Origin: Neisseria sp.
GTDB lineage: Bacteria; Pseudomonadota; Gammaproteobacteria; Burkholderiales; Neisseriaceae
Reading direction: 5' to 3'
Length of the DNA stretch: 24,000 nt
Assembly (NCBI GenBank): GCA_030531795.1
Contig: JAUNMN010000009.1
Coordinates: 27,883 to 51,882, forward strand
In this document: piece by piece, positions 2,700-11,866 of the stretch
Numbering within the stretch: the stretch's first letter is position 1
Layout of the letters: every line of letters starts with the position of its first letter
Position numbers and translations under genes: made by a program
The notes under the pieces: model-generated
The model's input: only the letters and a program-made list of their open reading frames with translations
What the model was told of the DNA's origin: nothing
Database searches by the model: none

Positions 2700-3767
2700 T
2701 TAGAATTTGTGTACCAAGCCAACCAAACCAGCTGTAGTTTTGGTTTTGCCTTCGCCAGTAGAGTTCAAAGATGTATCAACACCGTTTTCTTTCAACCAGC
2801 CTGCTTGTGCAAATGCAGTTGTGCGTTTAGAGAAATCGTAATCCACGCCTACAACAACTTGTTCGTATTCGCTGTCGTTTTGTTTCTTACCAGTCGCGAT
2901 ATCTTTTGCTTTGAAACCGTGAGCGTAAGACACTTTAGGCGTTACGTTACCGAATGAGTACGCACCAGTTACAGCAACTTCGTGAACTTTACGAGCGTCG
3001 CCCCAACCTTTAGCAAATTGGTAGCCAACAGTTGCTGCGATGTTGTTTGCGTTGTAACCACCTTCTACGCGGTGAACTTGTGCATCACCTGTATGTGTTT
3101 TACTAGCTGCATCTTTATAGCTATAGCCTTCTTTCTTCAGACCAAAACCATATTTAGCGAAGAAGCCAGCGTTTTCGTAGTTCAAACCAGCGTAGTAAGC
3201 AGAAGTATCGCCTTTATCATTTGCATCTGGTTTGTATTCGCTACGACCAGTGTCAGCTTGGTTGTCGCGTGGAACGTATTGTACGTTACCGCTGAAACCT
3301 GCCACTACTGGAGAATCGTAGCGTACAGAAACTACTTTCTCACCAGTGCGAGTGAATTTGCTCAAGCCCAAAGCTTTGTTCTTGTAAATCCATGGATCAA
3401 CTTGACCCATATCGTCCAAAGCAGTACCTACTTTACCTGCTTTGATAGTACCAGCTTGGCTTTCCAAACCGATGTAACCCAAACGGCTTGCCCAGCGTGA
3501 ATCAGTACCAGCAACAGAAGTACTTTGCTCTAATTTCCAAATTGCGTTCAAGCCGTTGCCCAAATTCTCATGACCTTTGAAGCCGATGCGTGAACCCAAA
3601 TCTTGGATTTGAGTGGTTACAGGTGTTTCTTTTTTCTTATCGTTCCAGCCAGTTTGTTTAGTTTGGCTAACTTCAACACCAGCGCGGATTTGACCATACA
3701 AAGTTACATCTGCAACTGCTGCAGTTGACAAAGCTGCCAAAGACAAAGCAATCAGAGTTTTTTTCAT
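2700..3767 (-). CDS. por: Neisserial-type trimeric porin (major outer membrane protein, PorB-like)
   Basis: The 355-aa product has the signal peptide MKKTLIALSLAALSTAAVA followed by DVTLYGQIRAGVEVS, the classic neisserial porin N-terminus. It has alternating beta-strand composition and a C-terminal ...GLVGLVHKF with terminal Phe. Confidence 0.93.
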   Translation of the reverse strand: MKKTLIALSLAALSTAAVADVTLYGQIRAGVEVSQTKQTGWNDKKKETPVTTQIQDLGSRIGFKGHENLGNGLNAIWKLEQSTSVAGTDSRWASRLGYIGLESQAGTIKAGKVGTALDDMGQVDPWIYKNKALGLSKFTRTGEKVVSVRYDSPVVAGFSGNVQYVPRDNQADTGRSEYKPDANDKGDTSAYYAGLNYENAGFFAKYGFGLKKEGYSYKDAASKTHTGDAQVHRVEGGYNANNIAATVGYQFAKGWGDARKVHEVAVTGAYSFGNVTPKVSYAHGFKAKDIATGKKQNDSEYEQVVVGVDYDFSKRTTAFAQAGWLKENGVDTSLNSTGEGKTKTTAGLVGLVHKF

Positions 3768-4206
3768 TGCTGTATTCCTTTTCTATGTTTAAGAAAGAAA
3801 CTTAAATCAGAGATGTTTTGTTCACCCCTTGAATTAAGCTTTGGTATTCATCGCTGCGGGTACAGCGATTTCATGGCTGTAATATAAATGCTTAAACGCA
3901 AAAAAACAAACTCAATTGCGGATTTTTCTTGCTAACCTAGAGAAAATCTGTTGTTTTTTGGCAACATGGAATTTTTATTCTTATATTTTTCAAAATCTTA
4001 TTGATATTTTTTATTTGCATTTTTTTGTTGTTGTTTTGTGTTGTTTTTTTGCACATTCGGCTGAAAACGGGGATTTGACTCGAAAAAATGGTGCGCAAAT
4101 CGGGAAAACAGTGAAGCGCAAAGGCTGATTTTTGGGGTTTGAGAGCGGTTTTTGGCTGTTTGTGCGCTGACTACTCATGATTTGTGCAAGTGTAAAGTGA
4201 CAAAAA

Positions 4207-4310: not shown

Positions 4311-7157
4311 TTATTCGTAGTTGTCGATGCTTGGGCATGAGCAAACCAAGTTGCGGTCGCCGTATACATCGTCTACGCGATTGACGCTTGGCCAGAATTT
4401 GTTTTCACGCACATAAGGCAATGGGAAAACGGCTTCTTCGCGGCTGTATGGACGCGTCCACTCGCCATCGGTTACGTTTGCCGCGGTGTGCGGCGCGTTG
4501 CACAATGGGTTGTTATCCGCTGGCCATTCGCCGTTTTGCACCTTCAAGGCTTCTTGCTTGATTTGTTTCATGGCGGCGATGAAGCGGTCTAACTCGGCTT
4601 TGCTTTCGCTTTCGGTCGGCTCAATCATCAAAGTGCCTGCCACTGGGAAAGACATGGTTGGCGCGTGGAAGCCATAATCCATCAGGCGTTTGGCGATGTC
4701 TACTTCAGTTACGCCGCTTTCGGCTTTCAATGGACGCAAATCGATGATGCACTCGTGTGCCACGCGACCGTTTTTACCTGTGTACAACACGGGATAGTCG
4801 CTGCTCAATTGTTTGGCGACGTAGTTCGCGTTGAGCAAGGCGTTTTCGGTTGCTTGACGCAAGCCTGTTTTGCCCATCATGGTGATGTACATCCATGTAA
4901 TCGGCAAGATGCTGGCTGAACCGTAAGGCGCGGCAGAAACGGCACTCATGCCTGCAGTTGCGCCTGCCACTGGGTTCACCACATGGCTAGGCGCGAACGG
5001 CGCTAAATGTGCTTTCAAACCGATTGGACCCATGCCAGGACCGCCGCCGCCGTGTGGAATACAGAAGGTTTTGTGCAAGTTCATGTGCAACACATCTGCG
5101 CCGACTTCGGCTGGCTGCATGATGCCGACTTGGGCATTCATGTTCGCGCCGTCCATGTAAACTTGACCGCCGTTGTCGTGAATGATGCGACAAATGTCGC
5201 GAATGCCCTCTTCATACACGCCGTGGGTTGATGGATAAGTAATCATCAATGCACCCAAATTGTCGCGGTGTTGCTCGGCTTTGGCTTGCAAGTCGGCGAT
5301 GTCCACATTACCCAACTCGTCTGTGTTCACGACTACCACTTTCATGCCCAACATTTGTGCGGTTGCAGGGTTCGTGCCGTGTGCCGAACGCGGAATCAAA
5401 CACACATCGCGGTTAGGCTGACCGTTTGCCGCGTGGAAACGGCGAATCGCCAACAAACCTGTGTACTCGCCTTGTGCACCTGAATTTGGCTGAATCGCAA
5501 TCGCGTCAAAGCCTGTAATCGCTTTGAGTTGCTCTTGCAAGCCTGTAATCATTTCCAAATAGCCGCGCGTTTGTTCGGCTGGAGCAAACGGATGAATTTG
5601 ACTGAATTCCGCCCAAGTTACAGGCAACATTTCGGCGGTTGCGTTCAATTTCATGGTACAAGAACCGAGTGAAATCATGCTGCGGTTCATCGCCAAGTCG
5701 CGCTCTTCCAGTTTTTTCAGATAGCGCAACATTTCGTGTTCGGTGTGATAACGATTGAACACGGGATGCGACAAAATCGCGTCGGTGCGCAACAGTGCAG
5801 ACGGCAACTTGCCCGCCACTTCGCTTGGCAACACGCCTGCTTTGCCTGTGAACAATCGCACCAAAGCGGCAAAATCTTCGGCTGAACTTTCTTCGTGGAA
5901 TGCCACCGCCAACACGTTTTCATTCACTTGACGCAAATTGTAACCAGCTGCCAAGGCGTTTTGATAAATCTCGCCTGCTTTCGCTCCGCAATCTAAAGCA
6001 ACGGTGTCAAAGAACACGTTGTGTACTAATTGGATGCCGTCTGCAGTTACCGCGTCAGCGAACGCTGAAGCCAAAGCGTGAATGCGGTTGGCAATGCGTT
6101 TCACGCCTTCAGGGCCGTGGTAAACCGCGTACATGCCTGCCAAGTTCGCCAGCAAAACTTGTGAAGTACAAATATTTGAGTTGGCTTTTTCGCGGCGAAT
6201 GTGTTGTTCACGCGTTTGCAATGCCATGCGCAAAGCAGGTTTGCCCGAAGCGTCTTGCGACACGCCGATGATGCGCCCAGGGGCGTTGCGTTTGTCTGCG
6301 TCTTTGAATGTGAAATACGCTGCGTGTGGACCACCAAAACCCATAGGCACGCCGAAACGTTGGGTGTTGCCCAAGGCGATGTCTGCACCTAAAGACGCTG
6401 GCGATTTGAGCAAGACCAAGCTCATCACGTCTGCCGCCACGGCAACCACCGCGCCTTTGGCTTTCACTGCGGCAATCGGTGCCGCCAAATCGGCAACGTC
6501 GCCGTCTTTGCCAACGTATTGGAACAATGCGCCGAAGAAATCGCCATTTTCAGCAGCGGCAAAATCGCCCACCACCAACTCAAAGCCAAAATATTCGGCA
6601 CGGGTTTTCATCACATCTAAAGTTTGTGGCAACACGCGTTCGTCCACAAAATATTGATTCGATTTAGATTTGCTTACGCGTTTTGCCATTGCCATCGCTT
6701 CGGCGGCGGCAGTTGCTTCATCCAACAAAGACGCGCCAGCCAACTCATGACCCGTCAAATCGATGCACATTTGTTGGAAGTTTAACAAAGCTTCCAAGCG
6801 ACCTTGTGCGATTTCGGCTTGATACGGCGTGTAAGCGGTGTACCAACCTGGGTTTTCCAACACATTGCGCAAAATCACATTTGGCAAACGCGTTGGGTAG
6901 TAGCCCAAACCGATATACGATTTGTTCACCACGTTTTTGCTGGCAATGGCTTTGAGTTTCGCCAAAGCGTCGGCTTCGCTCAATGAATCAGGCAAATCCA
7001 ACTCTGCAGACGGCATACGCACGCTTTGTGGCACGGTGTTGCTCACAAAACTTTCCATGCTTTCTTCGCCCAAAGCCGCCAACAAAGCTGGCTGGTCTTT
7101 GAAGCTGATGTGGCGTGAAACAAATTCAGCAGAATTGAATAATTCGTTTAATTTCAT
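4311..7157 (-). CDS. gcvP: Glycine dehydrogenase (aminomethyl-transferring), glycine cleavage system P protein
   Basis: The 948-aa single-chain P protein is collinear with remembered GcvP. It shows [22 protein letters not shown] and the PLP-lysine region [16 protein letters not shown]. Confidence 0.97.
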
Positions 7158-7306
7158 GTTTTTTCCTCTAGAAAATAAAAGAGTGCTTTTGGCAAATTAA
7201 GTCAGCGCAATCCACGCCGCCCCATTTTTGAATAAACCAGCGATGTTTTGCCCACACAGGCTTACTCAAAAACGCGGCTCAAACGCATTTGCCCCAACAA
7301 ACAAGC

Positions 7307-7335
7307 AAAAAAAGCTGCCTGACAAACAGGCAGCT
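7307..7335 (-). terminator. Rho-independent terminator or attenuator between gcvH and gcvP
   Basis: A perfect 9-bp stem, AGCTGCCTG (7313-7321) with CAGGCAGCT (7327-7335), has a 5-nt loop. On the minus strand it is followed by T7 (7307-7313). It begins 11 nt after the gcvH stop. Confidence 0.7.
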
Positions 7336-7345
7336 CTCATCTTCA

Positions 7346-7729
7346 TTAACCGATTTCGGCTGCGTATTGTTCAGCAGACAACAAGCCGTCTAAATCTGCA
7401 GCGTTAGCAGGTTTCACGCGGAAGAACCAGCCTGCGCCGTATGGCTCGCTGTTTGCCAAATCAGGGCTGTCTACCAAAGCCTGATTGATTTCTACCACTT
7501 CGCCCGCAATCGGTGCGTACACATCAGAAGCGGCTTTCACAGACTCAACCACGCCTGCTTGCTCGTCTGCATCCAAGTTTGCACCCACTTCTGGCAACTC
7601 AACAAACACGATGTCGCCCAATAATTCTTGCGCGTGTTCGGTGATGCCCACAGTTACTGTGCCGTCTGCTTCTGCACGCAACCACTCGTGGCTGGCAACG
7701 TATTTTAATTCTGCTGGAATATTGCTCAT
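7346..7729 (-). CDS. gcvH: Glycine cleavage system H protein (lipoyl carrier)
   Basis: The 127-aa product carries the lipoyl-lysine motif [18 protein letters not shown] and the N-terminal YVASHEWL. Confidence 0.97.
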
Positions 7730-7829
7730 GGTTTGTTCTCCGTATTAAGCATAAAGGTTTTAAGGTTTACAAGCGATGAAACAGCCGTTCAAAACAAAAA
7801 TCAGCCATTCCCTTGCTTTGGATATTCAC

Positions 7830-7862
7830 GATGCCGTCTGCAGTTTACCAGCACACGGCATC
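7830..7862 (-). repeat. DUS-containing hairpin between gcvT and gcvH with no adjacent T-run
   Basis: GATGCCGT (7830-7837) pairs with ACGGCATC (7855-7862) across a 17-nt loop. The left arm is a full ATGCCGTCTGCA DUS. No U-tract follows on either strand, so terminator function is doubtful. Confidence 0.5.
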
Positions 7863-7881
7863 GCCAATTGTGTCATTCAAA

Positions 7882-8979
7882 TCAATCAAATTGTTTTTTG
7901 CCATTGCGTACAAACGGCAATTTCAACACGCGCACGTCCACTTCTTTGCCGCGAATCAACACTTTCGCGCTGTCGCCTTCAAAGTTTTTCGGCACACGCG
8001 CAATCGCGATAGACTGTTTCAAGCTCGGCGAGAACACGCCGCTGGTGGTGATGCCTTTGCCTTCTGGCGTAATCACTTCCATGCCGTCGCGTAAAATGCC
8101 GCCTTTGTCCAACAACAAGCCAACTTGTTTCACGTCCACGCCGCGTTCTTTCAAAGCCAACAAAGGTGCTTTGCCCACGAAATCGCGACTTTCGTCTTTC
8201 AAATCAACCGTCCAGCCCATGCCCGCTTGCAAAGGACTGGTGTCGTCGTCCATGTCGTTGCCATACAAATTCATGCCTGCTTCCATACGCAAAGTGTCGC
8301 GCGCACCCAAACCGCAAGGCTGCACGCCTGCTTGACGCAAAGCCGCAAAAAACGCGTTCGCTTCAGCCGCTGGCAAAATCACTTCCACGCCCTCTTCGCC
8401 TGTGTAGCCTGTGCGTGCCACAAACCAGTCGTTGCCCAAGTCTGCGCCTTGAAACACCGCCAAATTGTTCACCACGTCTGTCCACTCAGGTTTTACGGTC
8501 AATAATTTTTCAATGGCTTTAGGACCTTGCACCGCCAACATACCCAAGTCGTAACGCGGTGTTAAAGTGATGCCAAATTCTGCGCCCACTTTAGCAAACT
8601 GCGCCGAGTCTTTTTCACGCGTCGCGCCATTAGACACGATGCGGTATTGCGTTTCGGCTTCGTTGGTGCGATACACGATTAAATCGTCAATCACGCCGCC
8701 ATTGTCGTTCAACATTGCCGAATACAAAGCCTTGCCGACAAAAGACAATTTTTGCACGTCATTTGCAATCAATTTGCGGAAAAAGGCTTTGGCGTTGTCG
8801 CCCGTAACGTCTGTTACCAACATATGCGACACGTCAAACATGCCTGCGTCGGTGCGCACGGCTTCGTGTTCTTGGATTTGCGAACCGTAGTTCACAGGCA
8901 ATTCCCAGCCAGCAAAATCAATCAATTTGCCGCCTGCGTCTTTATGAGCTTGATTAAATGGGGTGGTTTTGAGGGTCAT
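7882..8979 (-). CDS. gcvT: Aminomethyltransferase, glycine cleavage system T protein
   Basis: The 365-aa product begins [53 protein letters not shown], the canonical GcvT N-terminus. A GGAG RBS sits upstream. Confidence 0.97.
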
Positions 8980-9034: not shown

Positions 9035-9243
9035 ATCTGTCCTTGAACCTGAGATTTTCGTGCCGTCTGCAGTTCAATCAACGATGCAAACCGCCTTTTC
9101 CCCTTCGGTGGACGCAGCCGCGTCTCTCTCCAGATGTGTTTTTTGACTATCCAGTCCTTTTGCCTGAGCGATTTAAGGGTAATCTGCGCCTTCGGCGGCT
9201 GCTTGAAAGGTTTTGCAAACCACAAGCAACGCTCTCCTGAATA
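9035..9243 (-). promoter_or_regulatory. Tandem-aptamer glycine riboswitch in the gcvT leader
   Basis: Minus-strand aptamer 1 reads CAGGAGAGCG...GCCGCCGAAGGCGCAG...CGCTCAGGCAAAAGGAC. Aptamer 2 reads TCTGGAGAGAGACGC...GTCCACCGAAGGGGAAAAGG...TCTCAGGTTCAAGGACAG. These are the conserved GGAGAG / ACCGAAGG / CUCAGG..AAGGAC cores, and they sit upstream of a glycine cleavage operon. A candidate expression-platform hairpin lies at about 9004-9034 and is followed by UGUUUUG. Confidence 0.88.
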
Positions 9244-9250
9244 TTTGGCG

Positions 9251-9279
9251 ATTATCGCACAATCGCTAACAACTGCAAA
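9251..9279 (-). promoter_or_regulatory. Candidate promoter of the riboswitch-gcvTHP transcript
   Basis: On the minus strand: TTTGCA (9279-9274), a 17-nt spacer, then GATAAT (9256-9251). This places a start site a few nt before the first aptamer. It is a pattern match only. Confidence 0.4.
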
Positions 9280-9507
9280 CGTTTCTTTACGCTTTTCGCG
9301 TTTTATCACAAAATTGCCATTTTTTAGTGTGTTTAACGCATTTAATCGCGTTTACTGATTTTTTATTTTAAAAAAATTCTGTTTTTGGTGTATTGTGTGT
9401 TATGAAAATTTACTTTATATTTCGTTCATCAGAACAAATCGCTTCATTTTTAGGCAAAAATTAAAAATGAATATTTCAACACTGAAAAGAGAATAAAGGA
9501 AATCATC

Positions 9508-9996
9508 ATGTCACAAACCATCACTTTAGATAAAACCGATTTAAAAATTTTGCAAGTTTTGCAAAGCAATGGTCGCCTAACCAATGTGGAGCTTTCAGAA
9601 CGCGTTGCCTTGTCGCCATCGCCTTGCTTGCGCCGTTTGAAGCAGCTGGAAGACGCGGGCATTATTCGCCAATACGCCGCTTTGCTCTCGCCCGTGCATG
9701 TGAATTTGAGTTTGCAAGCCTTTATTCGCGTATCGATTGACAAAGCCAGCGAAGCGCGTGAACAGTTTGCCGACGCAGTGCAAACGTGGCCAGAAGTATT
9801 GAGCTGCTTTGCTTTGACGGGCGAAACCGATTATTTGTTGCACACCTTCTTTTCAGACATGAACGCCTTCTCGCGCTTTGTGTTGGAAACCTTGCTGTCG
9901 CACCCAGGCGTGCAAGATGCCAAATCCAGCTTCGTGTTAAAAGAAATCAAAAACACCACCGCTTTGCCTTTGAGCCACTTGCAAAGCGAAGCGTAA
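9508..9996 (+). CDS. lrp: Lrp/AsnC-family transcriptional regulator
   Basis: The 162-aa product has the N-terminal wHTH LDKTDLKILQVLQSNGRLTNVELSERVALSPSPCLRRLKQLEDAGIIRQY and a C-terminal RAM-type domain (LTGETDYLLHTFFSDMNAFSRFV). It is divergent from the gcv operon. Confidence 0.9.
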   Translation: MSQTITLDKTDLKILQVLQSNGRLTNVELSERVALSPSPCLRRLKQLEDAGIIRQYAALLSPVHVNLSLQAFIRVSIDKASEAREQFADAVQTWPEVLSCFALTGETDYLLHTFFSDMNAFSRFVLETLLSHPGVQDAKSSFVLKEIKNTTALPLSHLQSEA

Positions 9997-10019: not shown

Positions 10020-10065
10020 GATGCCGTCTGCAACTCAAAACTGCAGACGGCATCATGTTTTTCAT
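10020..10065 (+). repeat. Left copy of a direct repeat: DUS-pair terminator after lrp plus about 10 bp of flank
   Basis: GATGCCGTCTGCAACTCAAAACTGCAGACGGCATCATGTTTTTCAT. The hairpin is at 10021-10053 and is followed by T5. Compare the right copy at 11817-11866. Confidence 0.8.
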
Positions 10066-10243
10066 AGCCTTGTTCACGCCATTCAAATTTTATTAAATCA
10101 TTAATTTATTCAATATCTTAACTTATTTCACACTAAAAATCCCACACTTGCCCTATTGCCATATCCGCGCGACACAATTACATTACGCCAAACTACAATC
10201 GCCACAAAATGCTTATTTTCCAACAGCTTGTAGGAGGTAAATC

Positions 10244-10315
10244 ATGTACACAATGTTTTATCTTGACGCTCAGTGGTTTAATCTCGACCACCAGCTGGTT
10301 TGCTGTTTTCCATAA
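10244..10315 (+). CDS. tnaC: TnaC-like tryptophanase operon leader peptide (23 aa)
   Basis: This ORF is too short for the ORF track. TAGGAGGT lies 5 nt upstream of ATG 10244. The peptide is MYTMFYLDAQWFNLDHQLVCCFP followed by stop. The W-F-N-(I/L)-D core and a Pro as last codon match E. coli TnaC (..KWFNIDNKIVDHRP-stop) with identical spacing: Trp to Asp is 4 and Trp to Pro is 12. It ends 72 nt upstream of tnaA. Confidence 0.75.
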   Translation: MYTMFYLDAQWFNLDHQLVCCFP

Positions 10316-10333
10316 TTTCCTTTTTTGCAAATA

Positions 10334-10367
10334 GTTGCGCCATGTTTTTCGTGGCAACGATTTTTTT
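10334..10367 (+). terminator. Weak candidate intrinsic terminator or attenuator in the tnaC-tnaA spacer
   Basis: GTTGCGCCA (10334-10342) pairs imperfectly with TGGCAAC (10352-10358), with one bulge. It is followed by GA and T7 (10361-10367). The stem is short and the loop is 9 nt, so this is low confidence. Confidence 0.3.
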
Positions 10368-10387
10368 ATCGCAAAAAAGGAAAATCC

Positions 10388-11803
10388 ATGAATACGTTTA
10401 AACATCTCCCCGAACCTTTTCGCATTCGCGTGATTGAACCCGTGAAACGCACCACGCGTGAATACCGTGAACAAGCCATTTTGCGCGCAGGCATGAATCC
10501 ATTTTTGTTAGACAGCGAAGATGTGTTCATCGATTTGCTCACCGACAGCGGCACAGGCGCGATTACTCAAGAAATGCAGGCGGCAATGTTGCGCGGCGAC
10601 GAAGCCTACAGCGGCAGCCGCAGTTATCACACTTTATGCAAATCGGTTAAAGACATTTTTGGCTACGACTACACCATTCCCACTCATCAAGGACGCGGTG
10701 CAGAACAAATCTATATCCCTGTTTTGATTCGAAAACGCGAGTTGGAAAAAGGTTTAGACCGCAACAAAATGGTGGTGTTTTCCAACTATTTTTTTGACAC
10801 CACGCAAGGACACAGCCAAATCAATGGTGCAACGGTGCGCAATGTGTACACCGCCGAAGCGTTTGACACCGCCGTTAAAGCCGATTTCAAAGGCAATTTT
10901 GATTTGGAGGCGTTGGAGCAAGGCATTTTGGAAGTGGGCGCAGCAAACGTGCCTTATATTGTCGCCACGATTACCTGCAACTCGGCTGGCGGTCAGCCTG
11001 TGTCAATCGCCAACCTAAAAGGCATGTATGCCATCGCCCGTAAATACGATATTCCTGTGGTGATGGATTCGGCGCGTTTTGCGGAAAATGCTTATTTTAT
11101 TCAGCAACGTGAAGCCGAATTCCAAAGCAAAAGCATCGCCGAAATCACGCTCGAAGCCTATCAATACGCCGATTTGCTGGCGATGTCGGCGAAAAAAGAT
11201 GCCATGGTGCAAATGGGCGGTTTGCTGTGTTTCAAAAACCAAGAAATGCTGGACGTATACACCGAATGCCGCACACTTTGTGTGGTGCAAGAAGGTTTTC
11301 CGACTTATGGTGGCTTGGAAGGCGGCGCGATGGAACGTTTGGCGGTGGGTTTGCACGACGGTATGCGTGAAGACTGGCTGGCGTATCGCATTGCGCAAGT
11401 GCAGTATTTGGTGGACGGTTTGGAAGCCATCGGCGTTGTGTGTCAGCAAGCTGGCGGTCATGCTGCGTTTGTGGACGCAGGCAAATTGTTGCCACACATT
11501 CCCGCTGAACAATTTCCTGCGCAGGCGTTGGCGTGTGAATTGTATAAAGTGGCAGGCATACGGGCGGTAGAAATCGGTTCGTTTTTGCTTGGACGCGACC
11601 CGAAAACAGGTTTGCAATTGCCTTGCCCAGCCGAGTTGCTGCGTTTGACGATTCCGCGTGCCACTTATACCCAAACGCACATGGATTTCATCATTGAAGC
11701 CTTTGCCAAAGTGAAAGAAAACGCACAGAACATCAAAGGTTTAACGTTCACTTACGAACCTAAAGTCTTGCGTCATTTCACGGCTTTATTGAAAGAAGTG
11801 TAA
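10388..11803 (+). CDS. tnaA: Tryptophanase (tryptophan indole-lyase)
   Basis: I chose the start at ATG 10388 (AAGGA RBS), giving 471 aa: [28 protein letters not shown]...[19 protein letters not shown]...[18 protein letters not shown]...[15 protein letters not shown]...[19 protein letters not shown]. It is nearly collinear with remembered gammaproteobacterial TnaA and has the same length as E. coli TnaA. The listed ORF start at 10325 adds 21 implausible residues. Confidence 0.95.
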
Positions 11804-11816
11804 AGCCAAAACGTGT

Positions 11817-11866
11817 GATGCCGTCTGCAACTCAAAATCGCAGACGGCATCAAATGTGTTTTTCAT
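11817..11866 (+). repeat. Right copy of the direct repeat: DUS-pair terminator after tnaA plus flank
   Basis: GATGCCGTCTGCAACTCAAAATCGCAGACGGCATCAAATGTGTTTTTCAT. In the 35-bp core it differs from the left copy only by a CT/TC dinucleotide swap. A 4-bp indel precedes the shared TGTTTTTCAT. Confidence 0.8.

Follow-up and report, generated by a model that had tools for sequence, protein, structure and literature searches.

The window analysed in this work is a stretch of 24,000 nucleotides (nt) of Neisseria sp. (GenBank assembly GCA_030531795.1, contig JAUNMN010000009.1, positions 27,883 to 51,882 of the forward strand). It hosts a tryptophanase gene, tnaA, preceded on the same strand by a short open reading frame (ORF) resembling tnaC, the leader gene found upstream of tnaA in Escherichia coli. 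In TnaC, a classical example of its kind, the ribosome senses a small molecule by way of the nascent chain. The initial annotation, made from the sequence alone, had placed an unlisted 23-codon ORF at 10244-10315, 72 nt 5' of tnaA, and had described a strong ribosome-binding site 5 nt before its ATG. Inspection of the sequence and of the GenBank record bears out all these points. The core features of the locus are the following.

10231..10238, plus strand: Shine-Dalgarno (SD) region of tnaC, TAGGAGGT, with the core AGGAGG at 10232-10237, 5 nt 5' of the ATG, identified by direct reading
10244..10315, plus strand: tnaC-like leader ORF, 23 codons plus TAA, product MYTMFYLDAQWFNLDHQLVCCFP
10388..11803, plus strand: tnaA, tryptophanase of 471 aa (TIGR02617, Pfam Beta_elim_lyase, GenBank MDO4997650.1), with the lysine motif present

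The leader ORF reads ATG TAC ACA ATG TTT TAT CTT GAC GCT CAG TGG TTT AAT CTC and continues with GAC CAC CAG CTG GTT TGC TGT TTT CCA TAA. The key codons are those of W11 (10274-10276), D15 (10286-10288) and P23 (CCA, 10310-10312), directly followed by the TAA stop at 10313-10315. Because an in-frame TAA is found at 10238-10240, the ATG at 10244 is the earliest possible start. A 41-codon ORF overlapping tnaC in another frame (10209-10334) was rejected, as it has neither a ribosome-binding site nor conservation. The spacer separating the tnaC stop from the tnaA ATG spans 10316-10387, and is exactly 72 nt long. No protein is annotated in GenBank between MDO4997649, the Lrp/AsnC regulator, and MDO4997650, the tryptophanase, as the accessions of GcvT, the regulator and the tryptophanase follow one another without a gap. 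TnaA itself is an equivalog-level tryptophanase (950.9 bits against TIGR02617, cut-off 825.8).

Residues reported as critical in E. coli TnaC on the basis of cryo-electron microscopy are Trp12, Asp16, Ile19 and Pro24 (PMC8429421). All are either kept or conservatively replaced in the window peptide, W12 corresponding to W11, D16 to D15, I19 to L18 and P24 to P23. The claim that W11, D15 and P23-stop are spaced as W12, D16 and P24-stop is confirmed by comparison with the E. coli leader (locus L037). Position by position, the two peptides compare as follows.

E. coli W12, window W11: critical residue
E. coli F13, window F12: stacking on C2611 (PMC8429421)
E. coli N14, window N13: contact with A2058 (PMC8429421)
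E. coli I15, window L14
E. coli D16, window D15: critical residue
E. coli I19, window L18: position tolerating medium hydrophobic residues only (PMC8429421)
E. coli V20, window V19
E. coli R23, window F22: R23F raises tryptophan sensitivity, and Phe is common in homologues
E. coli P24, window P23: critical residue

L18, F12 and N13 of the window peptide occupy the positions of the E. coli ribosome-contacting residues Ile19, aromatic residue 13 and Asn14. The R23F form of E. coli TnaC is a hypersensitive variant, and Phe is found at that position in 'several' natural homologues (PMC8429421); the residue preceding Pro23 in the window peptide is Phe as well. Both leaders are short ORFs located directly 5' of tnaA on the same strand, share a WFN(I/L)D core and end in Pro; the window peptide also keeps F13, N14, V20 and, at position 19, a residue of medium hydrophobicity. 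The window peptide differs in being one codon shorter (23 versus 24 codons), in the unrelated N-terminal half, in carrying HQ at 16-17 (NK at 17-18 in E. coli) and CCF at 20-22 (DHR at 21-23 in E. coli), and in the stop codon, UAA instead of UGA.

Such a pattern is not due to chance, as the initial annotation had maintained. Translated in six frames, the window contains a single W-x3-D-x7-P-stop arrangement, whereas 0.06 are expected per shuffled 24 kb. A hidden Markov model (HMM) was trained on the leaders of other tnaA loci (52 distinct peptides), leaving the window out; among 928 stop-to-stop segments of the window the tnaC ORF is the sole significant match (E 1.8e-4), the next best having an E value of 2. 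The search with curated profiles gave a mixed outcome. Residues 10-23 align in register to positions 9-22 of the 22 positions of the NCBIfam model TIGR02616 (tnaC_leader) with an E value of 0.0078, but the score, 16.3 bits, is below the cut-off of 23.55, in keeping with the missing annotation of the ORF. Nine comparison leader peptides, E. coli TnaC among them, score 25.7-44.3 bits on the same model, and all pass. No match to the window peptide was found in Pfam, and none in Rfam at the tnaC leader, either at gathering or at permissive thresholds; weak Rfam matches to a microRNA and to an rpsL small RNA at the leader were discarded, as they merely reflect a hairpin described below. The low score is read here as that of a divergent member of the family, and not of a non-member.

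Much of the argument for membership comes from comparative data. Relatives of the window tnaA were found at 266 loci, 80 of which were fetched, from contigs representing one genome per species. In about 70 of these 80 loci tnaA is preceded by an ORF with the W-x3-D-x7-P spacing. Members of the Enterobacteriaceae, Pasteurellaceae and Vibrionaceae contribute to this set, together with two metagenome-assembled genomes (MAGs) of Cardiobacteriaceae, a second MAG of Neisseria sp. and one of Alysiella. One locus (L081) is the same DNA as the window, from the same run, and does not represent a separate relative. Between the window and its relatives blastn detects DNA similarity only within the coding region of tnaA (72-81% identical), and leaders are unalignable. 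Yet W, D and P are kept throughout, and D, P, F and L/I are spelled by synonymous codons (GAC or GAT for D; CCA, CCC, CCG or CCT for P; TTT or TTC for F). Since the critical residues are maintained by synonymous codons in DNA which cannot be aligned, it is the peptide that is conserved, not the DNA. At these orthologous loci, with TnaA identities to the window of up to 90%, conservation of the leader is of the kind expected from selection acting on the peptide.

The nearest peptides, WFN[LIV]DHKLS[AF]FFP, are found in Cardiobacteriaceae (L001 and L002), in the second Neisseria MAG (L004), and in Glaesserella, Mannheimia indoligenes and Actinobacillus indolicus. Within this group it is the window peptide (WFNLDHQLVCCFP) that has diverged furthest. 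The wider set of leaders ending in FFFP, from Pasteurellaceae, Cardiobacteriaceae and Neisseriaceae (for example L001-L010, L066 and Haemophilus influenzae TnaC, AAB96578), is the nearest clade, and shares with the window the WFN[LIV]DH(K/Q)L...FP pattern, the penultimate Phe, and short spacers of 50-140 nt. In contrast to the window peptide, these leaders pass the NCBIfam cut-off (25.7-42.5 bits), and many of those from Pasteurellaceae have 2-6 additional codons past Pro. In the window CCA (10310-10312) directly precedes TAA, as in the E. coli type. Extended leaders include L003, L006-L010, L012-L014, L017-L020 and others, with endings such as ...FFFPLNPLA and ...FYFPIIY, and the extensions vary even within a species (IIY, IIR, IIH, IIC, IIL, IIN). 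They resemble the type of Proteus vulgaris, in which TnaC reportedly has codons past Pro, and tryptophan is said to block elongation and not release.

On four grounds, its location, the spacing of its motif, its similarity to the profiles and its conservation across loci, the ORF can be placed in the known TnaC family as a new, divergent member. It is very likely a functional sensor of the TnaC type. The novelty claimed at first, namely that a tryptophan sensor of this kind had not been described in Neisseriaceae, is in part weakened. The window peptide is a new divergent member, but TnaC is known outside Enterobacteriaceae, and the leaders of the second Neisseria sp. MAG and of the Alysiella MAG pass the NCBIfam cut-off.

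The spacer between tnaC and tnaA hosts the following elements.

10316..10328, plus strand: anti-SD arm TTTCCTTTTTTGC, one half of a 13-nt inverted repeat, 100% complementary, beginning at the first base past the tnaC stop
10334..10367, plus strand: inner hairpin (10334-10361, -9.5 kcal/mol) followed directly by six U residues (10362-10367), possibly a weak intrinsic terminator or a pause site
10371..10383, plus strand: 3' arm GCAAAAAAGGAAA, including the tnaA SD AAGGA at 10377-10381, 6 nt before the tnaA ATG, identified by inverted repeat search and folding

The two arms pair perfectly over 13 bp, and close the whole 72-nt spacer as one hairpin. Its predicted stability ranges from -25 to -27.5 kcal/mol; the latter value has a z-score of -4.3, and is equalled by none of 200 shuffled sequences. 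The duplex formed by the arm and the SD (-17.3 kcal/mol) is similarly matched by none of 200 shuffles of the arm, nor by any other upstream window of 24 nt. The arm motif is not a dispersed repeat.

To model the stalled ribosome, residues 10295-10325 were held single-stranded, with Pro23 in the P site; this footprint covers most of the 5' arm. According to partition-function folding, the probability that the tnaA SD is unpaired rises from 0.014-0.02 in the free leader, where 98-99% of it is paired, to approximately 0.37-0.48 when the footprint is imposed. In the prediction the helix arm adjoins or underlies the footprint of the arrested ribosome, as in arrest-peptide attenuators which sequester an SD. 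In the constrained fold the tnaA SD has an alternative partner, a UUAUUUUCC stretch of the 5' untranslated region (~10213-10221).

The same helix design, with arm sequences different from those of the window, is predicted in L001, L002 and L004, the three closest of the relatives whose leader ends in Pro-stop. The spacer is closed by pairing of UAGUCCUCUUG with CAAGAGGAUUA in L001, of GUCCUCUU with AAGAGGAU in L002, and of AUCCUCUUU with AAAGAGGAU in L004. On imposing the footprint the predicted probability of an unpaired SD goes from 0.002 to 0.49 in L001, from 0.011 to 0.29 in L002, and from 0.018 to 0.48 in L004. No switch is predicted for E. coli (L037), where the values are 0.42 and 0.43. 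The four spacers (window, L001, L002 and L004) are not alignable. Leaders of the Glaesserella type feature complementarity between AAAUCCU and AGGAUUU within the additional codons, which here too places the arm shortly past the codon of arrest. More generally, spacers of up to 130 nt have stronger complementarity between the region past Pro and the SD than longer ones, all exceeding 140 nt and most of at least 200 nt (Mann-Whitney p ~1e-4, uncorrected for phylogeny).

A clustering of the best SD partner at the Pro codon, noticed throughout the family, was discounted because CCN-TAA and TTT-CCN inherently complement SDs of the TTAAGG type; it is seen even in some long-spacer loci of Kluyvera and Klebsiella. 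In L024, L029, L035, L026, L028 and L043 (Klebsiella, Cedecea, Kluyvera), the Pro-stop bases are the best predicted partner of a tnaA SD located ~250 nt away, as exemplified by the pairing of CACATCCCTTAATAG with TTAAGGGCTGT, and of CCGTCCTTAACTCC with TTTAAGGATGAC. Such pairings may be a codon-composition artefact, or denote weak long-range masking.

The mechanism that we propose is as follows. Free L-tryptophan in the ribosomal exit tunnel, together with the TnaC nascent peptide acting in cis, would block release at Pro23-UAA and leave the ribosome parked there. At high tryptophan, the parked ribosome would cover ~10295-10325, hence most of the anti-SD arm; the helix could not form, the tnaA SD would be exposed, and tnaA translated. 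At low tryptophan, the ribosome would terminate and leave, the hairpin would re-form, the SD would be hidden, and tnaA turned off. Rho, acting on untranslated tnaA mRNA, may contribute a secondary transcriptional effect (polarity). We infer both that the Neisseria ribosome stalls in response to tryptophan and that regulation operates through unmasking, and structure prediction and a handful of related loci make us lean, with limited assurance, to direct unmasking of the tnaA ribosome-binding site as the main output.

This output logic has known counterparts. In the SecM-secA, MifM-yidC2, ErmCL-ermC, cat-86 and cmlA leaders the arrested ribosome melts, or prevents, a helix in which the SD of the following gene is buried. 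The window leader would work in a similar way, and its two-arm design appears nearest to those of cat and cmlA. The likeness concerns the mode of working, and not family membership: the ligand would be tryptophan, and not secretion force or antibiotics, arrest would occur at a stop codon, and sequences are not related. SpeFL-speF, which senses ornithine, is comparable as a leader peptide sensing a small molecule, in which the stalled ribosome controls a catabolic/decarboxylase gene, but differs in ligand and in the unrelated peptide, and has a Rho-dependent output. In E. coli, the binding of L4 to the spacer is the only reported modulator of TnaA translation. SD sequestration in tna leaders was not found described in the literature covered; that coverage does not extend to the classical J. 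Bacteriol. literature on these leaders in H. influenzae and P. vulgaris, and a prior description is possible.

The strongest competitor is the classical output of E. coli and Proteus. According to this view, the ribosome stalled at the tnaC stop would block a Rho loading site beside the stop codon, letting transcription continue into tnaA, and the hairpin would be either incidental, or a site of RNA polymerase pausing, synchronising transcription with tnaC translation. Rho-dependent control, in which the arrested ribosome shields a rut site by the stop codon, is the established output of TnaC, and the sole mechanism demonstrated experimentally (PMC12360218; PMC10941005). Moreover, the L001 and L002 spacers are C-rich and G-poor (C/G ratio 1.9-2.9), and as such rut-like, and a hairpin followed by a U-run is reminiscent of hairpin-dependent pause signals. 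The window spacer has a different makeup. While the E. coli spacer is 220 nt long, that of the window is 72 nt, is U-rich, with a C/G ratio of 1.1 in the 60 nt that follow the stop, and is almost fully paired, its helix masking the SD; no boxA-like element was found in it, the best candidates having at least 4 mismatches out of 12. Given this base composition, its strong structure and the lack of boxA-like elements, it should be a poor Rho loading site, and the trio of features of an E. coli-type Rho attenuator (rut, boxA, long spacer with Rho termination sites) is missing, as far as sequence features tell. In addition, a Rho-based output leaves unexplained both the perfect 13-bp complementarity between the post-stop region and the SD, and the recurrence of the design in L001, L002 and L004. 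We regard this explanation as unlikely for the window.

The spacer hairpin could alternatively be an intrinsic terminator or attenuator, an mRNA-stabilising element, or a temperature-sensitive element masking the SD, in all cases independent of tnaC stalling. The inner stem (10334-10361, -9.5 kcal/mol) does directly precede the U6 run, and the pairing of a U-rich strand with the SD resembles RNA thermometers of the fourU type. On the other hand, the terminator stem is weak where it closes, with G-U, U-A and U-G pairs at its base, no antiterminator partner for the inner hairpin was seen by eye within tnaC, and the full hairpin, at -25 kcal/mol, is much more stable than a thermometer could be. 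The 5' arm also starts exactly past the stop of an arrest-type ORF, a placement which recurs in relatives, and altogether an element uncoupled from the leader peptide looks improbable. Very improbable is that the ORF is a decaying, non-working remnant of an acquired tnaCAB leader, with tnaA constitutive or under the adjacent Lrp/AsnC-family regulator, since divergence of the peptide (16.3 versus 25.7-44.3 bits), loss of tnaB, and the regulator gene directly upstream are outweighed by an intact frame, a strong ribosome-binding site, retention of the critical residues and of Pro-stop, and a perfect anti-SD/SD helix which would decay quickly without selection.

A divergent TnaC sensor with a translational, not Rho-dependent, read-out emerges as the best overall explanation, and we give it somewhat better than even chances. 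Several points weigh against it. Every step, stalling on the ribosome of Neisseria included, is a prediction. Predictions of secondary structure leave out co-transcriptional folding and proteins, and the inner hairpin plus U-run could be a terminator or a pause site instead. The peptide scores 16.3 bits against the TIGR02616 cut-off of 23.55, and has unusual residues, Q17, C20 and C21, where relatives carry K/R and F/F. TnaA has no relative above 90% identity in genome, metagenome or 90%-clustered protein collections; the best match is 90% in genome contigs and 87% in metagenome contigs, and its 90% cluster has one member. The arms of L001, L002 and L004 share TCCTCTT, and may represent one evolutionary event, not three. 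Short-spacer loci of Haemophilus and Rodentibacter feature weak complementarity only. Finally, Phe-Phe-Pro-stop codons (TTTCCNTAA) are anti-SD-like by composition, and the family-wide enrichment near Pro is accordingly biased; this bias does not apply to the window, because its arm is entirely non-coding.

More tentatively, and with chances that we put a little short of even, TnaC may have been rewired from Rho-dependent antitermination to Rho-independent SD unmasking in a small clade made up of the Neisseria MAG of the window, the second Neisseria sp. MAG and the two Cardiobacteriaceae MAGs. The anti-SD placed directly past the arrest codon may make of these leaders a complete tryptophan-inducible switch of ~150 nt.

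Two further features of the region upstream of tnaA concern the expression of tnaC. The tnaC ribosome-binding site is predicted to pair with codons 5-7 of tnaC, AGGAGGUAAA with UUUUAUCUU (-9.2 kcal/mol; 10225-10275, plus strand), and this pairing might limit, or time, tnaC translation. The second is a putative promoter.

10156..10184, plus strand: candidate sigma-70-type promoter, TTGCCA, 17 nt, TACATT, identified by consensus match only

The evidence for this promoter is weak, as the search returned 3 sites against 2.7 expected.

The tnaC-tnaA pair is organized as a cassette of ~1.8 kb, delimited by two repeats, and inserted between the Lrp/AsnC regulator gene and core genes. These core genes, downstream of tnaA, are DUF1415, DUF454 and CitMHS_2.

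10020..10055, plus strand: left 36-nt direct repeat, made of two inverted copies of the uptake-sequence variant GCCGTCTGCA that fold as a hairpin, identified by repeat search and blastn self-match
11817..11852, plus strand: right 36-nt uptake-sequence hairpin repeat, 94% identical to the left copy

The left repeat serves as terminator of the Lrp/AsnC gene, the right one as terminator of tnaA, and the two mark the edges of the cassette. The tna cluster of H. influenzae, as described by Martin et al. in 1998, is reportedly also flanked by uptake-sequence repeats. In contrast to E. coli tnaCAB, no tnaB permease gene follows tnaA in the window, the host is a betaproteobacterium, and the leader peptide is below the family cut-off; tnaB is kept in the relatives L002, L004 and L066. 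Proteins from Cardiobacteriaceae, Pasteurellaceae and Enterobacteriaceae share 84-90% of their residues with TnaA of the window. Flanking repeats, insertion site, missing tnaB and these levels of identity suggest that the sensor was acquired horizontally together with the enzyme. Acquisition by transformation, followed by loss of tnaB, or acquisition of a cassette already lacking tnaB, are both suggested.

The 10-mer GCCGTCTGCA occurs 30 times in the 24 kb, mostly as ATGCCGTCTGCA, and TGCCGTCTGC 39 times, while the canonical Neisseria uptake sequence GCCGTCTGAA is not found in the 24-kb window. Copies are often arranged as inverted pairs, in terminator hairpins. They look like a dialect of the DNA uptake sequence ending in CA instead of AA. 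The Lrp/AsnC-family regulator gene (9508-9996, plus strand) immediately precedes the tna leader, in the same orientation, and could provide a second amino-acid-responsive layer on tnaA, or may be part of the divergent gcv operon. A glycine riboswitch aptamer (RF00504, 57.5 bits; 9142-9249, minus strand) precedes gcvT-gcvH-gcvP (4311-8979, minus strand), and the intergenic region around it is very AT-rich (28% GC at 9250-9549). A porB RNA (RF03042, 44.4 bits; 3829-3890, minus strand) is found upstream of a porin gene (2700-3767, minus strand). The porB RNA, the glycine riboswitch and the uptake-like 10-mers fit a Neisseria chromosome.

The curated TIGR02616 model misses divergent leaders such as the window peptide, and should the family assignment alone hold, the finding would be a modest one, a further unannotated member of a known leader family. 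To our knowledge, every mechanistic study of TnaC has used the Rho-dependent system of E. coli or Proteus. If the proposed switch is real, the sensor and output modules of arrest-peptide switches would be interchangeable, one and the same sensor having been swapped in nature between a transcriptional and a translational platform. The switch could be exploited as a compact, Rho-independent part for tryptophan biosensors. It would also be explained how such a switch can be transferred by horizontal routes into hosts with different Rho/Nus machinery, here Neisseria.

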